From the IMG/VR virus record IMGVR_UViG_3300025781_000011, positions 1,174-65,173 of that record: a DNA stretch of 64,000 nt; one strand, written 5' to 3'. How positions within the stretch are numbered: position 1 is the first letter of the stretch; every line of letters begins with the position of its first letter. The DNA is from a virus. Taxonomy: Duplodnaviria > Caudoviricetes. Below the pieces are notes generated by a model, which made no database searches, was not told the origin of the DNA, and saw nothing but the letters and a program-made list of their open reading frames with translations. Of this stretch, positions 3,476 through 19,125 are shown in pieces. A program made the translations under genes and the position numbers.

Positions 3476-4669
3476 ATGGAAAATAAAGATCTAATAAGAA
3501 AGTCACTTGATATTATCAACGAGTCTATGCTAGAAGATGGTAAAGAATGGAAGCGTACAAAAGCTCAACAAGATTTTGATCATGACCTAGACGGTGTTCC
3601 GCATGATCCAGAACATGATGACGAGGATCCAGATGCTGACCTAAAGCATAAAGAACGCAAGTACGACAGCGACGAAGAAGAAGATTTCGATGAGTCTGTT
3701 GAGGACGGTGACGAAGACGATGACGATTTAGAAGCTAGCGGATTTCCAAAAGATCCAAAGTACTATGACGAAAAAGGTCGTTATAAGTGGATGGAACCAG
3801 AAGATTTAGATCGTGATGAGGAAGAAGATCGCGAACACGACGACGAAGAGGATTTAGAAGAGGACGATGTCAAGGAAGATGCACCAAAAGCAAAATCTGC
3901 ACCAAAAGCTGATTCCGCTGGTACCAGTTTCCCAGGCATGGGTGAAGGTATTTACGAAGGCGACGAACTTGATGAAGGTATAAACATCACACTCGACGGT
4001 CCGGAAGCTGACGAGTTTGTTGCTAGATTAATGCAACTATCTGGTCAACCTGCTCCTGTTATGCCACATGATGCTCCAATTCAAGCAGTACCTGTGGATG
4101 TAGCTCCAGTTGCACCTGATATGGATGGTGCACCTGCTCCTGACATGGACGGACCGGTTGCACAAGCAGTTGATCAACCAGAAGTTGATGCTGACCACTT
4201 TGTAGCAGACGACAGCGGAACATGTGAAGTATGTCATATGCCAGAATCAATGTGCGAATGCCCAATGACTACACAAACATCGGGTCCATTATTAGGACAT
4301 GACGGTGTTACGATGGAAGAACATGCTGAATATGATCACGGACACTGTGAAGTCGACGATGAGGGTAAAGAAGTAGATCCAGAAACTTACATGTATAAGA
4401 TACCTACCCCTGCACAGAAAATGGTCAAGGGCATGATGGGCGACAATCCAATGGTTGAAGAATCAATGGAACGTTACAATAGAATCGTAAATGATTATGT
4501 AAAATTCCTAGGCGAAAGCGACATACCAAATGAAGATGGTGTAGCAAGTCCGTTAACAGCGGCTGATCGTCAAGAATTTGATAAGGATCCGCATGCAGGC
4601 CAAGAACCAAAAACAGACGGCAGCATGAGTCCAATGAGTCAAATTGATAGACAGGATGTAATGAAATAA
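3476..4669 (+). CDS. Highly acidic hypothetical protein (possible prohead core/scaffold-type)
   Basis: 397 aa with long D/E tracts; GAGG RBS. Confidence 0.6.
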   Translation: MENKDLIRKSLDIINESMLEDGKEWKRTKAQQDFDHDLDGVPHDPEHDDEDPDADLKHKERKYDSDEEEDFDESVEDGDEDDDDLEASGFPKDPKYYDEKGRYKWMEPEDLDRDEEEDREHDDEEDLEEDDVKEDAPKAKSAPKADSAGTSFPGMGEGIYEGDELDEGINITLDGPEADEFVARLMQLSGQPAPVMPHDAPIQAVPVDVAPVAPDMDGAPAPDMDGPVAQAVDQPEVDADHFVADDSGTCEVCHMPESMCECPMTTQTSGPLLGHDGVTMEEHAEYDHGHCEVDDEGKEVDPETYMYKIPTPAQKMVKGMMGDNPMVEESMERYNRIVNDYVKFLGESDIPNEDGVASPLTAADRQEFDKDPHAGQEPKTDGSMSPMSQIDRQDVMK

Positions 4670-4917: not shown

Positions 4918-6513
4918 ATGAGCAAGTCTGATATTGATTTCACGTTAGTTAAACCAGCTAACCAAAAGACCACATACACACCTCATCAAATACGAGAAAT
5001 AAAAAAGTGTATGAGCGATCCACTATACTTCATGCAACAATACATGTGGATACAACATCCTACTCAAGGTAAAATACCATTCGAAGCATATCAATATCAA
5101 AAGAACCTAATAGAATGCTATTGGAAATACAAGGAAGTTATAGCACTACTTCCTCGTCAAAGTGGAAAGACTACGACTGCGGCAGGTTACTTATTATGGT
5201 ATACTATGTTTAATGACGACGTAACAGTGTTGATTGCTGCTAACAAATTCCGTGCTGCTACAGAAATTATGGATCGTATCAAGTTCGCATATGAAGAATT
5301 GCCCAACTGGTTACGTGCAGGCTCTGCAACATATAATGTGCAGGACATTAAGTTTGACAATGGGTCGAGAATCAAAGCCACAACTACTACACCAGATTCT
5401 GGACGTGGTATGTCTATTTCACTATTATACTTGGACGAGTTTGCGTTCGTTAAGCCTCGTATTGCAGAAGAATTTTGGACTGCTATGAGTCCCACACTTG
5501 CAACAGGTGGTAAATGTATTATTACATCTACCCCTAATAGTGATGAAGATAAGTTTGCTGAAATTTGGGTTGGTGCTAACAAGACAATAGATGATTGGGG
5601 CAATGATATACCAAATGGATTGGGTATAAACGGATTTAAAGCATTTACATCACACTATTCGGATGTTCCTGGTAGAGATGAAGAATGGGCTACAAGAGAA
5701 CGTAATAAGATAGGGGCAGATAAGTTCGACCGAGAGTACGGGTGTCAATTCTTAACTGCTGATGAAACACTTATTAATGCTGTAACATTGTTAAAGCTAC
5801 AGGGTGTTGACCCCATATATAAAACCAACGAAATACGTTGGTATGATCAACTAAAACCCAATATGACTTATCTAGTGGCATTAGATCCCAGTGCAGGTGT
5901 AGGTAAGGATCCTGCTGCTATTGAAGTGTTTAGTTTACCAGAAATGAAACAAGTAGCAGAGTGGACACACAATAGAACCAGTATACCTAATCAAGTAAAG
6001 ACTGTGCAGAACATTGTGAATTTTATCTACAGTGAATTAAAAAAGATGCCCGAGCACCGAGGCGATCCGGACATATACTTTACACTTGAAAATAACAGTT
6101 GGGGCGAGGCTGCATTATTAACCATAACAGAAATAGGCGAAGAACGCTTCAATGGTACAATGTTACATGAACAACGTGTTAGAGGACAAGGTCGTCCGCG
6201 ACGCGGTCTTAATACCAATACACGATCCAAAGCACAAGCCTGCACCAAGTTAAAAAGCCTAATTGAAGCAGAAAAAATGAAAATATTCAGTAGACCACTA
6301 GTACGACAACTTAAATTCTTTGTGAGTAAAGGTGAAGGCTTTGCTGCTAAACCTGGTGAGAATGACGATTGTGTAATGGCTACTATGCTCTGTGTGAGAA
6401 TGATGCAAATGGTTCAAAATTGGGATGACAGAGTCGGTGACCTACTGCGAGACGATTTTGGTGACGATTATGATCACGAAGAACCAATGCCAATGAGCGT
6501 GATCATCAACTAA
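4918..6513 (+). CDS. terL: Terminase large subunit (T4 gp17-like)
   Basis: Walker A PRQSGKTT, Walker B LLYLDEFAF, TSTPN motif, nuclease ALDPSAGVGKD and DDCVMA. Confidence 0.95.
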   Translation: MSKSDIDFTLVKPANQKTTYTPHQIREIKKCMSDPLYFMQQYMWIQHPTQGKIPFEAYQYQKNLIECYWKYKEVIALLPRQSGKTTTAAGYLLWYTMFNDDVTVLIAANKFRAATEIMDRIKFAYEELPNWLRAGSATYNVQDIKFDNGSRIKATTTTPDSGRGMSISLLYLDEFAFVKPRIAEEFWTAMSPTLATGGKCIITSTPNSDEDKFAEIWVGANKTIDDWGNDIPNGLGINGFKAFTSHYSDVPGRDEEWATRERNKIGADKFDREYGCQFLTADETLINAVTLLKLQGVDPIYKTNEIRWYDQLKPNMTYLVALDPSAGVGKDPAAIEVFSLPEMKQVAEWTHNRTSIPNQVKTVQNIVNFIYSELKKMPEHRGDPDIYFTLENNSWGEAALLTITEIGEERFNGTMLHEQRVRGQGRPRRGLNTNTRSKAQACTKLKSLIEAEKMKIFSRPLVRQLKFFVSKGEGFAAKPGENDDCVMATMLCVRMMQMVQNWDDRVGDLLRDDFGDDYDHEEPMPMSVIIN

Positions 6514-6543
6514 ATATTACTTGCAAACATTTGGAGTAACATA

Positions 6544-7800
6544 ATGAATTTTAATTGGTCAATCATTGGTGACAAAATTTTTGGAATCTTAAAGGGTTCT
6601 GGATTTACACTTCAAATGTTTGATAAGACTGGCACCAAGACACTTGATCCACATGAAGCTACACGATTTTTTGCTACTATAGCAAGCAACGATCCAGAAT
6701 TAGAAAAGTATAGTATTTTAATTGGTGTACATGATGAAAATCATAATAGTCACGTTGATATTAAAACACCTAACCTGGATAATAATGAGGATTTTGATTT
6801 CATACACAAATTAAAAAATAGTATTCAACGAAATGTAGGCGATCGAGAAGGTTTAAGTGTTAATTGGTTTAAATTTGATCATGCAATTACACCAAAAGAT
6901 GAAGTTGTTAACAACATTGTAGAAAGCAAAGATATCAGCAAACCATTTGGATCGACCAAAAGCAGCTATCAACGAGTTGGCAATAGTAAAATAATCATAC
7001 GTCATACAGATGCTATCAACGAAGAAAAAAAAGGTAGCCGCTGGAGACATGTACGAGCAATATTTGTTGAAAATGCACTAGGCGAAAGATTAATGTATCC
7101 ACATATGCATATCGCTGGTGCTAGAGCAATGGCCAGACACTTTTCAAATAATGGTGTGATGCACGATCAAATCGGTGAAGCTATTCAACAATTAAGTAGC
7201 GATTATATGGATCTCAAACGATCAGCTAAAATGATTCGTGCAACAGGCGATGAATCAAAAACCACAGCACTTAGAGAATCTCTACATAAAATCAATAAAG
7301 ATGTTAAGAAACTAAGCGGATCAAGAGGATACGTTTTGGCTTCGGGCGGCTTAAAAGAACAAAATATCAATGAAGATTCTAATGTTATCAATAAGATATA
7401 TGAAGAACTATTAGAGAAGTGCATGTGCGAACGTGATAGCAATGATGCTGCAACTTTATTGGTTGCTGCCAAGTATCTATCAACTGCTAATCTAGTAGAA
7501 GCACCCACTGTTAATTTTACAAGTAGACCAGATCTAACCAGCGAGTGTTCAAACTATCCTGATCAAAAGGATAGAATGGCTTGGCAAATTGAACAGTTAG
7601 CTGAGTGTGTTGATGATGACATGCTGAGATCAAAGCTGACCTCTGCTGCAGGTACACTGAGAACACATGGTGTAATGGATCCAGACGATGTTGAATTGGT
7701 TAAGATGGTGTTCAAAGCATCCAAGGGGATCAAGCATGAGCCTGAGGTACCGGTTGTTGATCCTGGGTTGGACCGTATCAAAACTTTGAGCGGGATCTAA
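6544..7800 (+). CDS. Conserved hypothetical phage protein (likely head-associated)
   Basis: 418-aa ORF after TAAATA with GGAG RBS. Confidence 0.65.
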   Translation: MNFNWSIIGDKIFGILKGSGFTLQMFDKTGTKTLDPHEATRFFATIASNDPELEKYSILIGVHDENHNSHVDIKTPNLDNNEDFDFIHKLKNSIQRNVGDREGLSVNWFKFDHAITPKDEVVNNIVESKDISKPFGSTKSSYQRVGNSKIIIRHTDAINEEKKGSRWRHVRAIFVENALGERLMYPHMHIAGARAMARHFSNNGVMHDQIGEAIQQLSSDYMDLKRSAKMIRATGDESKTTALRESLHKINKDVKKLSGSRGYVLASGGLKEQNINEDSNVINKIYEELLEKCMCERDSNDAATLLVAAKYLSTANLVEAPTVNFTSRPDLTSECSNYPDQKDRMAWQIEQLAECVDDDMLRSKLTSAAGTLRTHGVMDPDDVELVKMVFKASKGIKHEPEVPVVDPGLDRIKTLSGI

Positions 7801-12447: not shown

Positions 12448-13485
12448 ATGCAGTCATATGTAAAAGTTGTCTCAGCTCGGTCCCGTCAGGGAGTAGACAT
12501 CCAGGATACAGTATTCAAAATGCTAGACCATCCACACAAGGACAAAGACGGTCTATACATTGTTGTAGACGGAACACCACACAGTAATCTTCGCAATGGA
12601 CGAGTCCGACTTTATATTGATTCACCAGGCGACTACCATCCAATTGATGCCGCAGCAGCAGAAAAGATTCTACGTCCGATTACAGATGCAACCAACGATA
12701 CTCGCGACGATGGTGAGATTGCAGCAGAACTCAGAGAGACTTTTAATATCCTCGAGGAAATGACCAAAGCAGTTGCTTCCAATATTGTTAAAGGTTTGGT
12801 AGTAAGTGGTCCAGCAGGTGTTGGCAAGAGTCATACAGTAGAGTCAACCTTGGTTAAGACTCTGGGATTGATGGCTGCATTTAAAAACGGAATGCCGCAA
12901 TTCGAGTTTATCACCGGTGGTATTAGTGCTCCTATTCTATATACCAAGCTTTGGAGTTATAGAGAAGAAGGACAGGTACTGGTGTTTGATGACTGCGACA
13001 GTGCGTTATATGATGAAGAAAGCCTTAACATCCTCAAAGCGGCACTTGATTCTAAAAAGGTGCGTAAAATTTGTTGGAACAAAGATAGCCGTATTTTAGA
13101 GAATAGAGATATTCCAAACTCATTTGAGTATAAAGGCGGAATTATCTTTATTACTAATTTAGATTTCAACAATCTAAGAAGTCCGAGAATTTCAAACCAC
13201 TTAGAAGCTATTGTGAGTCGTTGTCACTACATGCAGTTAGGAATGAATACCATTCGTGAAAAGTTAATCCATATTAAAGATGTTATCGAACGCAATGACA
13301 TGTTTCACGGATATGGATTTGAGGAAAGTGAAAAGAACGAGGTTGTTAAGTATGTTGAACTTAACGCAGCAAAAATGCGTGAAATGAGTCTTCGCACGGT
13401 TCTTAAAGTAGCCGACTTGCGTAAAGCCATGCCAGAACGTTGGGAAAAGTTTGCTAATAAGAATGTGTTGAAATCTGTAGCCTAA
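12448..13485 (+). CDS. AAA+/P-loop ATPase
   Basis: Walker A GPAGVGKS, Walker B VLVFDDCD, IIFITN; GGAG RBS before ATG 12448. Confidence 0.85.
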   Translation: MQSYVKVVSARSRQGVDIQDTVFKMLDHPHKDKDGLYIVVDGTPHSNLRNGRVRLYIDSPGDYHPIDAAAAEKILRPITDATNDTRDDGEIAAELRETFNILEEMTKAVASNIVKGLVVSGPAGVGKSHTVESTLVKTLGLMAAFKNGMPQFEFITGGISAPILYTKLWSYREEGQVLVFDDCDSALYDEESLNILKAALDSKKVRKICWNKDSRILENRDIPNSFEYKGGIIFITNLDFNNLRSPRISNHLEAIVSRCHYMQLGMNTIREKLIHIKDVIERNDMFHGYGFEESEKNEVVKYVELNAAKMREMSLRTVLKVADLRKAMPERWEKFANKNVLKSVA

Positions 13486-13501
13486 GAGCGTAAACTGTAG
13501 T

Positions 13502-14959
13502 ATGATAAAATCATGCAACATAATTATTGAAGACGAGTGCAACATAAAATTAGAAAATCTAGATCTATCTACACGAAAAGCGTGTGCCAATTCAGTCAAG
13601 TACTTCTTGCCTCATGCACGTTATAGCCCGGCATTCAAATTAGGCAGATGGGATGGAACTCAGAGTTTTTGTACACTTGGAGGCAGGACTTACTTAAATC
13701 TCTTGGACAAGATCCTGCCTATCCTAGAAGATAACAACTTTGAATTTGAAATTGAAGATCGTAGACAACGATATGAGTTTAACCTTGATCAGATCGACGA
13801 TCAATACCTAGCTGATATCACATGGCCAGAAGGTCATCGTATGGCAGGAGAACCTATTATTATACGCGACTATCAAGTAGCTGCTATAAATGAATGCGTT
13901 AATAATTTACAAGGGATAACGATTGCTCCTACTAGTGCAGGAAAGACAATCGTAACTTCTTGCCTGAGCAAACTTGCTGAAAAATATGGAAGAACTATTG
14001 TTATTGTTCCCAATAAGAATCTAGTACAACAAACAGAAGAAGACTACCGTAATATCGGATTAGACGTTGGTGTATTGTACGGTGATCGTAAAGAGTATAA
14101 TCGCACTCATACCATATGCACCTGGCAGAGTTTGAATGTATTAGATAAGAAAAACAAAGATGCACTTGATGATGATCAGCTAAAAGTATTTCTTGACAAC
14201 CTTGTTGCTGTTATATGTGATGAAGTGCATATGGTTAAGAATACAGGTGTACTACATACGCTATTAACAACTACATTTGCTAATGTGCCAATTCGCTGGG
14301 GATTAACTGGTACTATTCCAGAAGAAGAATACAACCAAGTTAGTTTGTACAGTGCCATTGGACCTATAATTGGTAAACTTACTGCTAAAGAATTACAAGA
14401 CGCAGGACATTTAGCACAGTGCCATGTTAATATTCTTCAAACTCAAGAAACATTGGTATATAATAACTATCAAGAAGAACTAAAGTACCTTGTTACCAAT
14501 AAAGAACGACTCGAGTGGCTAGCTACTAAGGTCAAGGAAATCGCTAAAACAGGTAATACTCTAGTCCTGATTGATAGAATTGAAACTGGACAAATTTTAA
14601 ACGAATTATTACCAGATGCTATATTCATTAGCGGTAAAATGAAAGCTACTGAGCGTAGAGAACATTATAAAGAAATTAACTTTGATAATAATGCGATTAT
14701 GATTGCAACTTATGGAACCACTTCAACAGGCATAAATATTAGTAGACTCTTTAATTTAGTTTTATTAGAACCGGGTAAGAGCTTTGTTAGAGTAATTCAA
14801 AGTATTGGTCGTGGTTTACGTAAAGCAGATGACAAAGAAGCAGTAGATATTTACGATGTGAGTAGCAAATGCAAATTCAGCAACAGACACCAATTGAAAC
14901 GACGGAAATTTTACACAGAAGTGCAATATCCGTTCACAATGAAAAAAATAACATACTGA
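13502..14959 (+). CDS. uvsW: SF2 DNA helicase UvsW-like
   Basis: RDYQ, APTSAGKT, DEVH, GLTGT, QSIGRGLR. Confidence 0.92.
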   Translation: MIKSCNIIIEDECNIKLENLDLSTRKACANSVKYFLPHARYSPAFKLGRWDGTQSFCTLGGRTYLNLLDKILPILEDNNFEFEIEDRRQRYEFNLDQIDDQYLADITWPEGHRMAGEPIIIRDYQVAAINECVNNLQGITIAPTSAGKTIVTSCLSKLAEKYGRTIVIVPNKNLVQQTEEDYRNIGLDVGVLYGDRKEYNRTHTICTWQSLNVLDKKNKDALDDDQLKVFLDNLVAVICDEVHMVKNTGVLHTLLTTTFANVPIRWGLTGTIPEEEYNQVSLYSAIGPIIGKLTAKELQDAGHLAQCHVNILQTQETLVYNNYQEELKYLVTNKERLEWLATKVKEIAKTGNTLVLIDRIETGQILNELLPDAIFISGKMKATERREHYKEINFDNNAIMIATYGTTSTGINISRLFNLVLLEPGKSFVRVIQSIGRGLRKADDKEAVDIYDVSSKCKFSNRHQLKRRKFYTEVQYPFTMKKITY

Positions 14960-16785
14960 AGCATATTGACGATCTTTTTGAAAAATACAAAAACAATGTT
15001 AAAGTAGCTAATTTGGTAATAAAACAATTAAAAGAATCAAATTATTGGGAAGAAATAACCTCAAAAATTGATTGTAATAAATTAGTTACAAGTAAAGATA
15101 TCGAAAAACTTTATGTATATGTCAATGGGTATAAACCCGAATGTCCCTTTAATAAACATATAAAATTTATAGGATATGCTGTAGGATATAGACGATGCGG
15201 TCCTGCTAGCAGGTGCAAATGTACAGAACAATCTGTATCCGATAATGTTTCGCGATCTAAACTTTCCTATTCTAATGATACAAAAAGTTCTATAAATGAA
15301 AAAAGAAAACAAACAAACATCGAACGATATGGTATTGATAATCCATTTAAAGACCAAGATAAGGTAAAAGAGTCGTATATAGCAAAATTGGGAGTCGATC
15401 ATCCTATGCATCTCGATTCAACCAAGGATAAAATCAAATCAACAAACATAGAAAGATATGGTGTCGATCATCCTATGCATCTCGATTCAACCAAGGATAA
15501 AATCAAATCAACAAACATAGAAAGATATGGTGTCGATCATCCTATGCATCTTGATTCGATCAAGGATAAAATCAAATCAACAAACATAGAAAGATATGGC
15601 GTCGATCATCCTATGCATCTTGATTCGATCAAGGATAAAATCAAATCAACAAGTTTAGAGAAATACGGTGTCGACAATCCGAGCAAAAGTGAAATAATCA
15701 AACAACAAATAAGAACAGCACAGCTTGATACCTATTATAGTAAATTATGTTCTAGATTAGAAATTCATAAAATAAGGCCCAACGACCAAGAGCCATTTAA
15801 TTTTACTTCAAACCATTTTAAATGGATATGCGATACGTGTAATAGTCACTTTGATGGTACTGCAATAAACGGCAGAATTCCTAGATGTCCTACATGCTAT
15901 CCAGCACATATTAGTTCTGGTCAACAAGAAATAGTAGATTACATCAAAGGTATAGTAGGAGTTGATCCTTTATTAATAAATGACAGAACTGTACTAGCAA
16001 ATAAAAACGATAAAAGAAAAAATAAAGAATTAGATATCGTAATAAAGGACAAAAATCTAGCAATAGAGTATTGCGGATTAAGATATCACACAGAAGGATT
16101 TGGCAATAAAAATAAATTTTATCATTATAATAAATGGTACGAATGTAACAATAAAAATATTCAATTAATAACAATTTTCTCAGATGATTGGTACGATAAT
16201 AAGTTGCTGATAAAAAGTATGATAAACGTTAGATTGGGAAAATCTGCAAAAATCCCTGCAAGAAAAACTATTGTTAGTGTCATAGACAATTATCAAGCAG
16301 AGGAATTTTTTGAAAATAATCATATCAGCGGTTATATAAAAAGTTCTTATAATATTGGGTTATTTTATGAAAATAAACTGGTAATGTGCATGAGTTTTTC
16401 TAAATCTAGATATAATAAATCATTTGAATTTGAAATAACTAGAATGGCTGCTATACGTAATACCGTTGTAGTAGGTGGTGCATCAAAACTATTCTCTTAT
16501 TTTGTTAAAAATAAAAATCCCAATTCTGTAATAAGTTATTGTGATCTTAGTTACGGTACAGGAAAAAGTTATTTAAAAATGGGATTTGCTTCTTTTGGAA
16601 AACCAACAATAGGATATCAATATGTTGAATTAAATAAACCCAATTGCAGATATGATAGATTGCAATTTCAAAAACATAAACTGGGAGAAACAAACGGTTT
16701 AACTGAAAAACAATTCATGTTGTCAAACGGTTTTGATGTTATATGGGATTGCGGGCATCAAAAATATATCTGGAAAAAGTCATGA
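14869..16785 (+). CDS. Hef-like / Vsr-type homing endonuclease with repeat domain, Zn ribbon and C-terminal GNAT-like module
   Basis: ERYGVD.P repeats, CxxC..CPxC, ELDI....NLAIEYCG..YH, ..GGASKLF...ISYCD; true start uncertain. Confidence 0.75.
   Translation: MQIQQQTPIETTEILHRSAISVHNEKNNILKHIDDLFEKYKNNVKVANLVIKQLKESNYWEEITSKIDCNKLVTSKDIEKLYVYVNGYKPECPFNKHIKFIGYAVGYRRCGPASRCKCTEQSVSDNVSRSKLSYSNDTKSSINEKRKQTNIERYGIDNPFKDQDKVKESYIAKLGVDHPMHLDSTKDKIKSTNIERYGVDHPMHLDSTKDKIKSTNIERYGVDHPMHLDSIKDKIKSTNIERYGVDHPMHLDSIKDKIKSTSLEKYGVDNPSKSEIIKQQIRTAQLDTYYSKLCSRLEIHKIRPNDQEPFNFTSNHFKWICDTCNSHFDGTAINGRIPRCPTCYPAHISSGQQEIVDYIKGIVGVDPLLINDRTVLANKNDKRKNKELDIVIKDKNLAIEYCGLRYHTEGFGNKNKFYHYNKWYECNNKNIQLITIFSDDWYDNKLLIKSMINVRLGKSAKIPARKTIVSVIDNYQAEEFFENNHISGYIKSSYNIGLFYENKLVMCMSFSKSRYNKSFEFEITRMAAIRNTVVVGGASKLFSYFVKNKNPNSVISYCDLSYGTGKSYLKMGFASFGKPTIGYQYVELNKPNCRYDRLQFQKHKLGETNGLTEKQFMLSNGFDVIWDCGHQKYIWKKS
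15394..15680 (+). repeat. 69-bp tandem repeat (four copies plus a degenerate fifth) encoding VDHPMHLDS(T/I)KDKIKSTNIERYG
   Basis: Copies begin at 15394, 15463, 15532 and 15601. Confidence 0.95.
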
Positions 16786-16815
16786 AAAATAATTTAAAAC
16801 TTACTGTGTTTTTAG

Positions 16816-16854
16816 GTTCAGTACCCTTTTACCATTGATAAAATTACATATTAA
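16816..16854 (+). pseudogene. Stranded second copy of the uvsW 3' end (VQYPFTIDKITY*)
   Basis: 10 of 12 residues plus the stop match the uvsW terminus VQYPFTMKKITY* at 14921-14959. Confidence 0.8.
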
Positions 16855-16929
16855 CAAAATAAATGAGCAAACTGGTGAAAATTTAGGTTAAATACTTCCG
16901 CATACCTAAAACAGTTTTAAAGGCTCAAT

Positions 16930-17430
16930 TTGAGAATCTTAACAAATGAAAATAAAGCATTTAATCTGAACGAATTACCTGATGTAGTAGATGACATCAG
17001 ATACTGTGTTCTTGATTATAGCGATCAAAATAATGTAGATTACTACTTCATGCCTCTGATATTCTTAGAGAGCTTTAATAGTCCATGTGTTGATATCAAA
17101 ATAGGCAAGTATAATATACAAATGCCATTAGATTGGAGTGTTATTATAGGCGACATAAACTTAGGCGAGATTGAGATAATGCCGTTGATTTATCTAAATG
17201 ATAAGGATTTTGATGTGTTCACACTTAATCCAATCAATGGTTATATGCCACGATTTATGAAATTTGAAATTATTAATATTTGGCCAGATGTGCGTTGGTA
17301 TTTCCCAAAATTAAAAAATGGACATATATTATCAGTACCACTAGATGACAGTGAAAGTCCACTCTGTGCATTTTTCTTAAAAGATATAGGAAAAATCCCC
17401 GAAAGTCTCGATATAAGAAAGCTGTTTTAG
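16930..17430 (+). CDS. Conserved hypothetical phage protein
   Basis: 166 aa, TTG start, TAAATA upstream. Confidence 0.7.
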   Translation: MRILTNENKAFNLNELPDVVDDIRYCVLDYSDQNNVDYYFMPLIFLESFNSPCVDIKIGKYNIQMPLDWSVIIGDINLGEIEIMPLIYLNDKDFDVFTLNPINGYMPRFMKFEIINIWPDVRWYFPKLKNGHILSVPLDDSESPLCAFFLKDIGKIPESLDIRKLF

Positions 17431-17436
17431 AAAAGC

Positions 17437-17472
17437 AAAACCCTTAGATTGCTCGGGCTCTCTAAGGGTTTT
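17437..17472. terminator. Bidirectional terminator between convergent genes
   Basis: AAAACCCTTAGA...TCTAAGGGTTTT. Confidence 0.8.
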
Positions 17473-17510
17473 ACTCGAGTCTGCTTGTTTGTCTTAAAAC
17501 AAGCTAAGTG

Positions 17511-17891
17511 TTATGAACTTGCTAGATATGCTTCATTACCGTATTGTATAGTATATGTACCGTCATTAAAATACCATTTATAATTGATTCCGTCAAAAGT
17601 TCTTACAGTGTTATCATAAATGACTTCTGCATACTTTGAGCCTTCTGCAAAAGTTGTAACAACAACACTAGCTTGACCGATGGCTAAATTACCGCCGTCG
17701 ATGTTAGCCAGTATAACTTCACCTTCGTGTGCACCGTCGTTACTGGTTACATAGTAACGACCTGTGCCAGTTTGGCGGTCTATATAACTTGCACGGGACT
17801 GAGTATCGCCTGGTACCCAAGCATAGCAAGCTATTTGACTACCGTTTATTGATACATTACCTATATAATCGTTTTTAATTGGACGTCCCAT
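17511..17891 (-). CDS. Virion structural protein (MGRP-start family)
   Basis: 126 aa starting MGRPIKNDYIG. Confidence 0.7.
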   Translation of the reverse strand: MGRPIKNDYIGNVSINGSQIACYAWVPGDTQSRASYIDRQTGTGRYYVTSNDGAHEGEVILANIDGGNLAIGQASVVVTTFAEGSKYAEVIYDNTVRTFDGINYKWYFNDGTYTIQYGNEAYLASS

Positions 17892-17904
17892 ATTCTATTC
17901 TACC

Positions 17905-19125
17905 TTATGAACCATTTCTTATTGATACTGCTACACCTGCTATAGCTGCATCGAAACTCCAAAGAACAATTTCGTCCTCAGCAAATTCGAAAGAACCTGA
18001 ACCTACTTGACCAACCACAGCTTTGTGTGACATGATCTTTTTGACCCAGTAGCTATTACCAGTACTATCTGTAGCTTGTATATATAAACCACTTGAACTA
18101 GTAGGAGGTGCTAATCCCAGTATGTATGGATAATCTTGTGTACCAAATACATAGAAACTGTTATTGCTTTCTTGTTTAACAATGTCAATTACAAGACTGG
18201 TAGCTAAATCAATACCAACAATAGCGTTGTTATATAAATTTGTCAATGCGTAAGTACCAGTTGCAACAGTTTCGCCACCACCTGGAGCAGTAAATGTCAT
18301 AGACTCTGATCCAAGGTATCCGTCGCCTGCTGTAGTAATCACTGCATGATCTGCTTGATAACTAACAGTTAATGTTGCACCTGAACCACCTGTAGGAGCA
18401 ACTGTAGTTGTTAATGCACCAAAATTAATTGTTCCAGAAAAACTTCCGCTGGCAACAACTGTAACAGCTTCTACACCGTATGTAAATGTTACAGAACCAC
18501 CAGTACCGTTATTATCACCTACTCCGGAACCATTATAGTCGCCTGTAGCACGAGTGTTATAACCAGTCGGTGTCATACTACCAGCAGTCGGACCTCCTAT
18601 AATGGTTTGTGCAGTTGTTGGGGCGTGAGTACCATCCGTACCGTCCCATACGCCATATATGCTTGCACCAGCATTATAACCAGTTAAATGATGTCCGCCG
18701 TCTGCTGTTACACCTTTAAGAATAGTAGGACTTGTCCAATGTGAATTAATGAACTGATCCCATACGATCCATTCTGTACCATCCCATGTTGTGCTACTAC
18801 CAGCAGTGTTTAATGATGCTGATAAAACACGTAGTTTTGTAACACGATATGTTGTTCCGTTGGTATCTGTTAGTATGTCACCAATTTGGTAACCTGAACC
18901 TTTTGCTGATAGTGTAGCACTTTTTGCTGTCGAATAAAGTACCCCAACAGCCTGTTGACCTAGCGGGAATGATGGAGTTGCAAATGATACTGTAGGAAGT
19001 CTATTGATATATGTTCCACCTGCAGTAATAGTAATGCTTGCTATGCCTTCACCGCCAATTTCTGCACCAGCTGGTGGAACTGAATTTGTTAAACCAAAAT
19101 ATTTTTTATTAAGTGGGCGTCCCAT
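17905..19125 (-). CDS. Gly/Thr-rich virion protein (MGRP-start family)
   Basis: 406 aa starting MGRPLNKKYFG; GSGY-type repeats; AGGAG RBS and late motif upstream. Confidence 0.75.
   Translation of the reverse strand: MGRPLNKKYFGLTNSVPPAGAEIGGEGIASITITAGGTYINRLPTVSFATPSFPLGQQAVGVLYSTAKSATLSAKGSGYQIGDILTDTNGTTYRVTKLRVLSASLNTAGSSTTWDGTEWIVWDQFINSHWTSPTILKGVTADGGHHLTGYNAGASIYGVWDGTDGTHAPTTAQTIIGGPTAGSMTPTGYNTRATGDYNGSGVGDNNGTGGSVTFTYGVEAVTVVASGSFSGTINFGALTTTVAPTGGSGATLTVSYQADHAVITTAGDGYLGSESMTFTAPGGGETVATGTYALTNLYNNAIVGIDLATSLVIDIVKQESNNSFYVFGTQDYPYILGLAPPTSSSGLYIQATDSTGNSYWVKKIMSHKAVVGQVGSGSFEFAEDEIVLWSFDAAIAGVAVSIRNGS

Follow-up and report, generated by a model that had tools for sequence, protein, structure and literature searches.

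A probable free-standing homing endonuclease cassette inside the last codons of a jumbo-phage uvsW gene, with a replacement gene end and a displaced native end

Mobile endonuclease open reading frames (ORFs) of fungal mitochondria, known as mORFs, create "gene hybrids", which are described in the sections of PMC3630166 used here for the atp6, atp9, cox2, and nad3 genes of Glomus sp.; these sections also cite, as reference 48, an mORF in the atp6 gene of Allomyces macrogynus. In this work, we analyzed a comparable arrangement in a virus genome (Duplodnaviria; Caudoviricetes), where an endonuclease ORF is found at the 3′ end of uvsW, a gene for a DNA helicase. The whole stretch of DNA under analysis, hereafter the window, comprises 64,000 nucleotides (nt) and corresponds to positions 1,174 to 65,173 of the IMG/VR record IMGVR_UViG_3300025781_000011. 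The results presented below make it very probable that the last 12 codons of uvsW were invaded by a free-standing homing endonuclease cassette (about 14845-16815), which supplied a replacement 3′ end and displaced the native tail.

The arrangement in the window appears to match the gene-hybrid pattern of the fungal mORFs, which would make these the closest known system. As far as the mORFs are covered by those sections of PMC3630166, they share with the window an endonuclease ORF placed in the 3′ coding region, an in-phase replacement C-terminus before it, and the native C-terminus displaced after it. In both cases the native copy is the one nearer to the nearest relative (91-98% versus 64-81% in Glomus, 82% versus 69% in the window). 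The two systems differ in that the host here is a phage genome and not a mitochondrion, that the window enzyme has a predicted Vsr/I-Bth0305I-like fold instead of a LAGLIDADG or GIY-YIG one, and that the duplication comprises only 12 codons. Moreover, the window ORF is not fused in phase with its host gene but is read in another frame from a start 91 nt inside the tail, which is thus read twice. Since fungal mitochondria share the solution of a spare gene end, this solution arose in very different genomes, and the uvsW case is a clean example with a mechanistic twist, not a new principle. What appears to be new here is that the spare end also encodes the N-terminus of the endonuclease, which would explain most of the "synonymous recoding" of this gene end in mechanistic terms.

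The T4-type phages provide a second term of comparison, with Seg, Mob, and Hef as free-standing homing endonucleases that spread by intron-less homing (PMC2988022). In the relevant passages of this review, SegE, a GIY-YIG enzyme listed between inh and uvsW, adjoins uvsW and cuts it, and five of the twelve T4 free-standing endonuclease ORFs overlap the upstream ORF, by 1-24 bp. Similarly to the T4 genes, the window ORF stands alone beside a DNA-metabolism gene, its presumed target in phages that lack it, and shows a sporadic distribution. However, the T4 genes lie between genes with those short overlaps, whereas the overlap in the window is 91 nt; the window ORF also has a different fold from SegE and is located at the 3′ end of uvsW, and no duplicated host-gene end is described for T4 endonucleases in the passages mentioned.

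A third relative is I-Bth0305I (3r3p), presented in the part of PMC3239194 considered here as the founding member of the "EDxHD" homing endonucleases. Like this enzyme, the window nuclease is phage-borne, would target a recombination/repair gene, and has a catalytic domain that is predicted to superpose on that of I-Bth0305I. Unlike it, the window ORF is free-standing and not intron-encoded in recA, its product has no detectable sequence similarity to I-Bth0305I, and it additionally carries DUF7487 repeats and a GNAT-like domain. In a work on aquatic jumbo phages (PMC12619734), uvsW appears only as a core gene, and a keyword search of the open-access literature, supplements excluded, retrieved no phage homing endonuclease with a duplicated host-gene end. 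As the window locus suggests, neither an intron nor an intein is needed for a homing endonuclease to enter the coding end of a conserved phage replication/repair gene if it brings a spare gene end along.

The uvsW-type gene extends from position 13502 to 14959 on the plus strand, where all the window features given below also lie, and encodes an uninterrupted protein of 485 amino acids with matches to Pfam ResIII, DEAD, and Helicase_C. The protein is about 50% identical to jumbo-phage helicases with the annotation UvsW; the jumbo phages concerned include Sinorhizobium phage Phosso, Pseudomonas phage PA5oct, and Agrobacterium phage Atu_ph07. Because of this jumbo-phage-like helicase and of the freshwater metagenome labels of the sequencing runs that hold the window sequence, we assign the source, on these sequence grounds, to an uncultured freshwater jumbo phage. 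The window represents most of a 65,173-nt record with a completeness estimate of 15%.

An initial annotation of this DNA had noted that the C-terminus of UvsW is encoded twice, and both copies were found exactly at the positions it gave. The working tail, VQYPFTMKKITY followed by a stop codon (14921-14959), is read in two frames, as the end of uvsW and as part of the N-terminus of the endonuclease. The displaced native tail, VQYPFTIDKITY also followed by a stop codon (16816-16854), is a non-coding remnant without a start codon and with a stop directly upstream. The two peptides agree in 10 of 12 residues, the differences being I/M and D/K, while at the DNA level only 27 of 39 bases agree and, by inspection, the longest in-register run of identity does not exceed 5 nt. 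The same annotation had remarked that most of the shared codons differ at the third base, and this holds for 8 of the 10 codons that specify identical residues. A direct-repeat search with 7-nt seeds misses the tail duplication, since the two copies share no seeds.

In order to be taken as a former gene end, a match of 12 residues has to be set against chance and mis-assembly, and this short length is the sole point in favour of either. Against a profile built from the uvsW tails of 57 distinct relatives, however, the downstream copy scores 33.9 bits, and the best of 323,404 other 12-residue frames in related loci reaches only 9.4 bits. When the DNA behind the endonuclease gene was aligned locally with the uvsW tail of the relative L034, it beat 500 of 500 shuffles. 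Regarding the assembly, two records of Logan run X2 (17,467 and 22,697 nt) cover 13400-15423 and 15623-17600, and short contigs of run X8 bridge 14938-15139 and 16782-17050, in all cases with 0 differing letters; the Logan assemblies break at the tandem repeats of the endonuclease gene (15358-15702). As these independent contigs match both junctions, the arrangement is not an assembly artefact, and the probability that it reflects chance or mis-assembly is practically negligible. The contigs of X8, X9, and X10 are low-depth fragments of the window arrangement or of relatives, and all the Logan runs date from 2017, possibly from one campaign. No joint that skips the endonuclease was present in the contigs of X2, X8, X9, and X10, which is not evidence that empty alleles are absent.

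Next to the remnant, the DNA has the organization of an empty site. Scans with UvsW provided 80 IMG/VR loci (of 98 confirmed) and 64 metagenome loci, with some contigs present twice. The uvsW 3′ end is contained in 77 loci of the first batch, 71 of them without the endonuclease at this site; in the second batch the endonuclease occurs only in L088. In 66 of the 71 endonuclease-free loci the next gene starts -4 to 234 nt past the uvsW stop; three of the others have different inserts of 805-834 nt, and in two the contig ends first. The closest relative, L034, is 88% identical in amino acids over residues 158-485, and its uvsW ends with VQYPFTVDKVTY and a stop codon. The DNA behind the window endonuclease is collinear with L034 through the tail, the intergenic region, and the start of the next gene (score 85, reached by 0 of 500 shuffles). 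The native intergenic region (16855-16929) is collinear with both L034 and L088, and the spacing to the next gene is 75 nt from the window remnant compared to 79 nt in L034. This conserved downstream gene (16930-17430; 166 amino acids; phrog_11279, E 2.1e-52) directly follows uvsW in the relatives and adjoins it in nearly all related loci.

The remnant and the tail of L034 agree at 32 of 39 bases, and the working tail and that of L034 at 27 of 39. The remnant is thus as close to L034 as the rest of uvsW, and no decay was seen. Read by eye, its six codons that differ from L034 comprise four synonymous and two I/V changes, a pattern that resembles recently coding DNA. The C-terminal motif V/A-x-Y-P-F/Y-x-x-x-K-I/V-x-Y, followed by the stop, is kept in relatives down to about 52% identity, which speaks for a role of the tail in the protein. 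The initial annotation had called uvsW essential; in T4, however, mutants of this gene are viable. The initial annotation had predicted that, in an alignment with endonuclease-free relatives, the downstream copy would be the one contiguous with uvsW and the next gene, and its collinearity with the intergenic region and next gene of the empty sites identifies it as the native end.

The endonuclease ORF (14869-16785; 638 amino acids) overlaps uvsW by 91 nt and is read in the +2 frame relative to it, so that its first 30 residues are encoded by the uvsW 3′ end and the third bases of the uvsW codons are the first bases of its own. Its ATG at 14869 is the first possible codon after an in-frame stop. 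With the native codons ATT GAT AAA, TGA and TAA would arise in the endonuclease frame; the working tail has ATG AAA AAA at this place. The third-base recoding and the I/M and D/K differences are largely explained by the requirement to keep the overlapping frame open. Accordingly, the recoded tail proposed in the initial annotation stands insofar as a re-spelled working tail completes uvsW, and the overlapping frame adds a concrete cause of the recoding to the immunization against cleavage that the annotation had considered probable. It is plausible that immunity to cleavage and a suppressed recombination between the two tails are further benefits of the re-spelling.

The overlapping frame was also followed in the relatives, over the last 90 nt of uvsW. 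It is free of stops in all four distinct endonuclease-bearing sequences and in 4 of 71 distinct endonuclease-free ones, the other 67 having 1-7 stops. The homologous ORFs in L088, L063/L082, and L064-L068 have their starts, too, at about 90 nt inside uvsW and immediately behind an in-frame stop, and no ATG, GTG, or TTG is present in the inspected stretch just downstream of that start.

These reading frames also bear on the view that the interval represents an intron or a stretch skipped during translation, with the downstream copy as the true final exon of uvsW. The downstream tail is indeed intact and shares its frame with the endonuclease ORF, and the uvsW genes of relatives carry other intervening elements. 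Nevertheless, the upstream copy is complete and has its own stop. A spacer of 30 nt (16786-16815), A+T-rich with a G+C fraction of 0.167, separates the endonuclease stop from the remnant and forms the right end of the cassette; it contains three in-frame stops, TGA, TAA, and a TAG (16813-16815) that abuts the remnant, which therefore is not read through from the endonuclease ORF. Except for these 30 nt at its 3′ side, the interval is filled by the ORF. No Rfam intron was matched in 14000-18000 at E up to 1, nor in the relatives at the gathering score. At a group I 5′ splice site a U is expected before the junction, but the base before the would-be 5′ junction is an A. We consider this explanation very improbable, and the proposal in the initial annotation that neither an intron nor an intein is involved was borne out: no intron model matches, and an intein is excluded because the endonuclease ORF has its own ATG and a frame different from that of uvsW.

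The ORF product matches the PHROG family phrog_3339 "homing endonuclease" (E 2.8e-107), also phrog_559, and Pfam DUF7487 (E 6.5e-29). A tblastn search retrieved 429 phage records, many of them annotated as homing or Hef-like endonucleases and often with several copies per genome; those annotated "Hef-like homing endonuclease", which is a depositor label only, are 27-39% identical. The G+C fraction of the ORF (0.299) is the lowest of 125 segments of equal size in the 64 kb. No NCBIfam family was matched, nor any nuclease family of Pfam or NCBIfam, and a phmmer search of all PDB chains gave no nuclease at E up to 1.

In a model of the full-length protein (pLDDT 68.6), the N-terminus is disordered, with residues 1-32 below 50, helical repeats of 23 residues are present, and the C-terminal part forms two folded domains. 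The repeats are encoded by four to five tandem 69-nt units of family D1/D2 (15358-15702) in the DUF7487 region; three of these units are identical or near-identical modules (NIERYGVDHPMHLDS.KDKIKST). The near-identity of neighbouring units suggests a recent expansion, and the 23-residue modules, which are helical in the model, are probably DNA-binding. Structure searches with the full-length model returned only the GNAT domain, and the nuclease domain (15880-16266; residues 338-466) was found when these residues were folded alone (pLDDT 81). Superposed by VIA-align, its model reached a Z score of 10.7 with 3hrl, 9.7 with Vsr (1cw0_A), and 10.3 with the catalytic domain of I-Bth0305I (3r3p_A; rmsd 2.8 Å over 94 of 97 residues). 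The residues E387, D389, E400, and H407 are invariant in 7 homologues. On the basis of this model, the ORF is predicted to encode a nuclease of Vsr/I-Bth0305I-like fold. The C-terminal GNAT/Mom-like domain (16261-16782; residues 465-638) superposes on 2bsw_A (Z 13.1, rmsd 2.6 over 126 residues) and matches phage Mu Mom 8bv8 in Foldseek (E 6.6e-5), with a weak match to Pfam Mom below the cut-off.

The endonuclease was found at this uvsW site in the window, in L088, in L063/L082, and in L064-L068. Its identity to the window protein is 49% in L088 and 43-44% in the others; a scan of IMG/VR with the endonuclease for a closer donor gave 5 loci, the best at 43%, which left L088 as the best overall. 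Directly after its endonuclease, L088 has a shorter remnant, DKITY followed by a stop, that matches the end of the L034 tail at 16 of 18 nt and has the collinear intergenic region behind it (score reached by 6 of 500 shuffles for the tail alone and by 1 of 500 for tail and intergenic region together). The L088 endonuclease ORF runs into this remnant and stops inside it. The working tail of L088, which ends with MEKVHF, has drifted from the family consensus, whereas its remnant keeps it. The endonuclease-free L005, L008, L010 (the same as L091), and L108 keep the overlapping frame open; the working tail of L008 is identical to the upstream tail of the window at 32 of 39 bases, and the intergenic regions of L008 and L010 are longer (234 nt in L010). 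The stretches concerned in L008 and L010 are L008:3677-3871 and L010:3455-3761. Open frames of this type, in L008, L010, L005, and L108, may be scars of endonuclease loss. The relatives would then form a natural series at one site, from naive empty sites through a 12-codon remnant, a 6-codon remnant, and no remnant to possible loss scars.

Part of the uvsW 3′ end has a history of its own. Over the last 984 nt of uvsW, the window groups with L034 at 143 of 228 sites and with L088 at 85, but within the block 14845-14916, 18 of 19 informative sites group it with L088 (maximum chi-square 29.3, reached by 0 of 500 permutations). In this block lie the endonuclease ATG with the bases that precede it and the first 16 codons of the ORF, and it is likely the left, co-converted part of the cassette. 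When L088 was replaced by ten control relatives, no comparable block appeared. Permutations reached the score in 7 of 200 cases for L010, the control in which 13 of 16 sites grouped at nearly the same place and which, as said above, lacks the endonuclease and has an open overlapping frame, and in 16-188 of 200 for the others. These results support a foreign origin for this part of uvsW, which would travel with the endonuclease. The claim that the element supplied the replacement tail is thereby supported for the block allied with L088, and not for the last 43 nt, which ally with L034.

Several observations weigh against a cassette that arrived with its own gene end. Of the informative sites in those last 43 nt of the working tail, 8 side with L034 and 3 with L088, which gives no support to a foreign origin of the last 12 codons. 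In L063 and L064-L068, a remnant was not recognizable above chance (score reached by 33-497 of 500 shuffles), and therefore the duplication is either not obligatory or decays. Identity over 39 nt, compared in 32 relatives, places 13 of them nearer to the downstream copy and 15 nearer to the upstream one, with 4 ties; at 65-80% nucleotide identity this test has too little signal to be informative in the wider family, and position and collinearity carry the case. The association of the open frame with the presence of the endonuclease (Fisher, 5.8e-5) overstates independence, as the four endonuclease-bearing sequences are two related pairs. Foldseek E values for the matches to the nuclease fold are only 0.02-0.4, above 0.001. 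Finally, a near-identical endonuclease-free genome was not found: a megablast search against 50,697 phage records gave only a 51-nt match, and the scans of IMG/VR and JGI metagenomes yielded a closest empty site with 88% protein identity, for which reason the insertion event is inferred and not seen.

The first two of these observations agree with a local duplication, in which the endonuclease entered the tail or the intergenic region and the last 12 codons were duplicated on the spot during repair, for instance when the polymerase switched templates or staggered ends were filled in. Re-spelling of the upstream copy in place would then have followed, under selection for an open endonuclease frame and for avoided recombination with the downstream copy; in line with this, the I/M and D/K differences are exactly those changes that remove TGA and TAA from the endonuclease frame. 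Nevertheless, the two copies differ at 12 of 39 nt and yet the remnant is undecayed, as near to L034 as the rest of the gene. In addition, the adjoining block 14845-14916 has a separate history in common with L088, and L088 shows the same architecture with a different junction. Taken together, we regard a local duplication as improbable and favour the arrival of a cassette that carried at least part of the uvsW 3′ end.

According to the favoured explanation, the cassette would bring its own uvsW 3′ end, which completes the helicase, and therefore no intron or intein would be needed. The original last 12 codons would have been pushed 1.9 kb downstream, where they would remain attached to the native intergenic region and the next gene but no longer be translated. 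The enzyme would cut the native uvsW tail of a co-infecting phage that lacks the endonuclease, and the break would be repaired from the cassette-bearing co-infecting genome, with the cassette copied in. This transfer is modelled on established free-standing phage homing endonucleases, as treated in parts of the review PMC2988022. The left junction would result from homologous exchange within uvsW, with a tract that here would reach back to about 14845. The right junction would be located at the cut itself or close by; alternatively, it would arise through recombination within the remnant and the downstream DNA, which could serve as the right homology arm in later transfers. A split and re-spelled target would make the carrier resistant to cutting while uvsW stays whole, and since the tails share no run of more than 5 nt, recombinational loss of the cassette would be hindered. 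From the boundaries of the remnants (codon 474 here; in L088, about codon 481), the cut site would be expected within the last dozen codons; a remnant boundary would in general predict where to look for the cut site of such an enzyme. Remnants and two-frame tails may also mislead gene callers and mark recombination hot spots in jumbo-phage genomes.

A further possibility is that overprinting on a replacement gene end is no by-product but an adaptive anchoring strategy of phage homing endonucleases, one that forms a self-repairing, hard-to-lose unit. We advance this idea tentatively and hold it to be rather unlikely. If it were true, deletion of the endonuclease or free mutation of its start would damage uvsW, the re-spelling would also destroy the target of the enzyme and remove the homology for tail-to-tail loss, and the open-frame, endonuclease-free L008 and L010 would be rare scars of loss.

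Some minor features were observed around the cassette. The 30-nt spacer contains CTTACTGTGT, and similar sequence is present after the L063 endonuclease (L063:6250-6290) and in the 88-nt intergenic region of the endonuclease-free L131; the likeness may reflect a conserved right cassette end, or be due to chance. In the native intergenic region, the motif TTTAGGTTAAATA occurs at 16882-16894. In the form TTTAGGTTAAATA(T)CCGC, it is conserved about 40 nt upstream of the gene that follows uvsW in several relatives (L034, about 1020-1037; L088, about 4600-4620), and it is a candidate phage promoter. A promoter and terminator scan of 14600-17100 was uninformative, with 14 promoter-like sites versus 15.6 expected and no terminator. 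The motif TTTAGGTTAAATA resembles the start of the uvsW tail, GTTCAATATCC, and can confuse searches for remnants. A "VQYP" remnant past the uvsW gene of L008 was not counted, as it matches the conserved intergenic motif GGTTAAATATCC equally well. In L095 (2264-2764) the gene after uvsW is on the opposite strand, which indicates a local inversion.

Other insertions were observed at and within the uvsW genes of the relatives. L064-L068 have an extra ORF of about 300 amino acids, starting with MKIYDCFTFFNELD, between the endonuclease and the next gene (e.g., L065:8990-9880), which presumably resembles glycosyltransferase family 17. In L037 (1878-2597; the same in L038), a 239-amino-acid ORF with a NUMOD3 match (E 1.5e-7) and, by eye, an HNH-like motif lies 3 nt past the uvsW stop, so that the uvsW 3′ flank hosts at least two unrelated endonuclease-like genes in this clade. 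A second interruption of uvsW, of 0.6-1.3 kb at residues about 236-265, was observed in L073-L081 and L137-L142 and is out of frame in L079; in L073 and L075-L077, the matches on either side of it share up to 29 residues, and a search for Rfam introns at the gathering score found none in L073 or L079. After residue 148 (148/149), an insert of about 1.1 kb is present in L036-L040, L056, L059, L063-L069, L072, L106-L108, L118, L127, and L132, and is absent from the window uvsW. It is in frame (370 codons in L072) and matches LAGLIDADG_3 (E 1.8e-10; ORF L037:28-1875), and it is most likely an intein in the ATP-binding region of the helicase. At the other end of the gene, L026, L027, and L029 carry the truncated first ~50 codons of uvsW, 62% identical to those of the window, about 1 kb upstream of the complete gene. 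In L027, an antisense ORF of 238 amino acids with NUMOD3 is placed between the two uvsW copies (4953-5201; 5153-5869, minus strand; 6001-7458). This arrangement at the 5′ end mirrors the one described here, and it may represent a homing cassette that duplicated the start of the gene.

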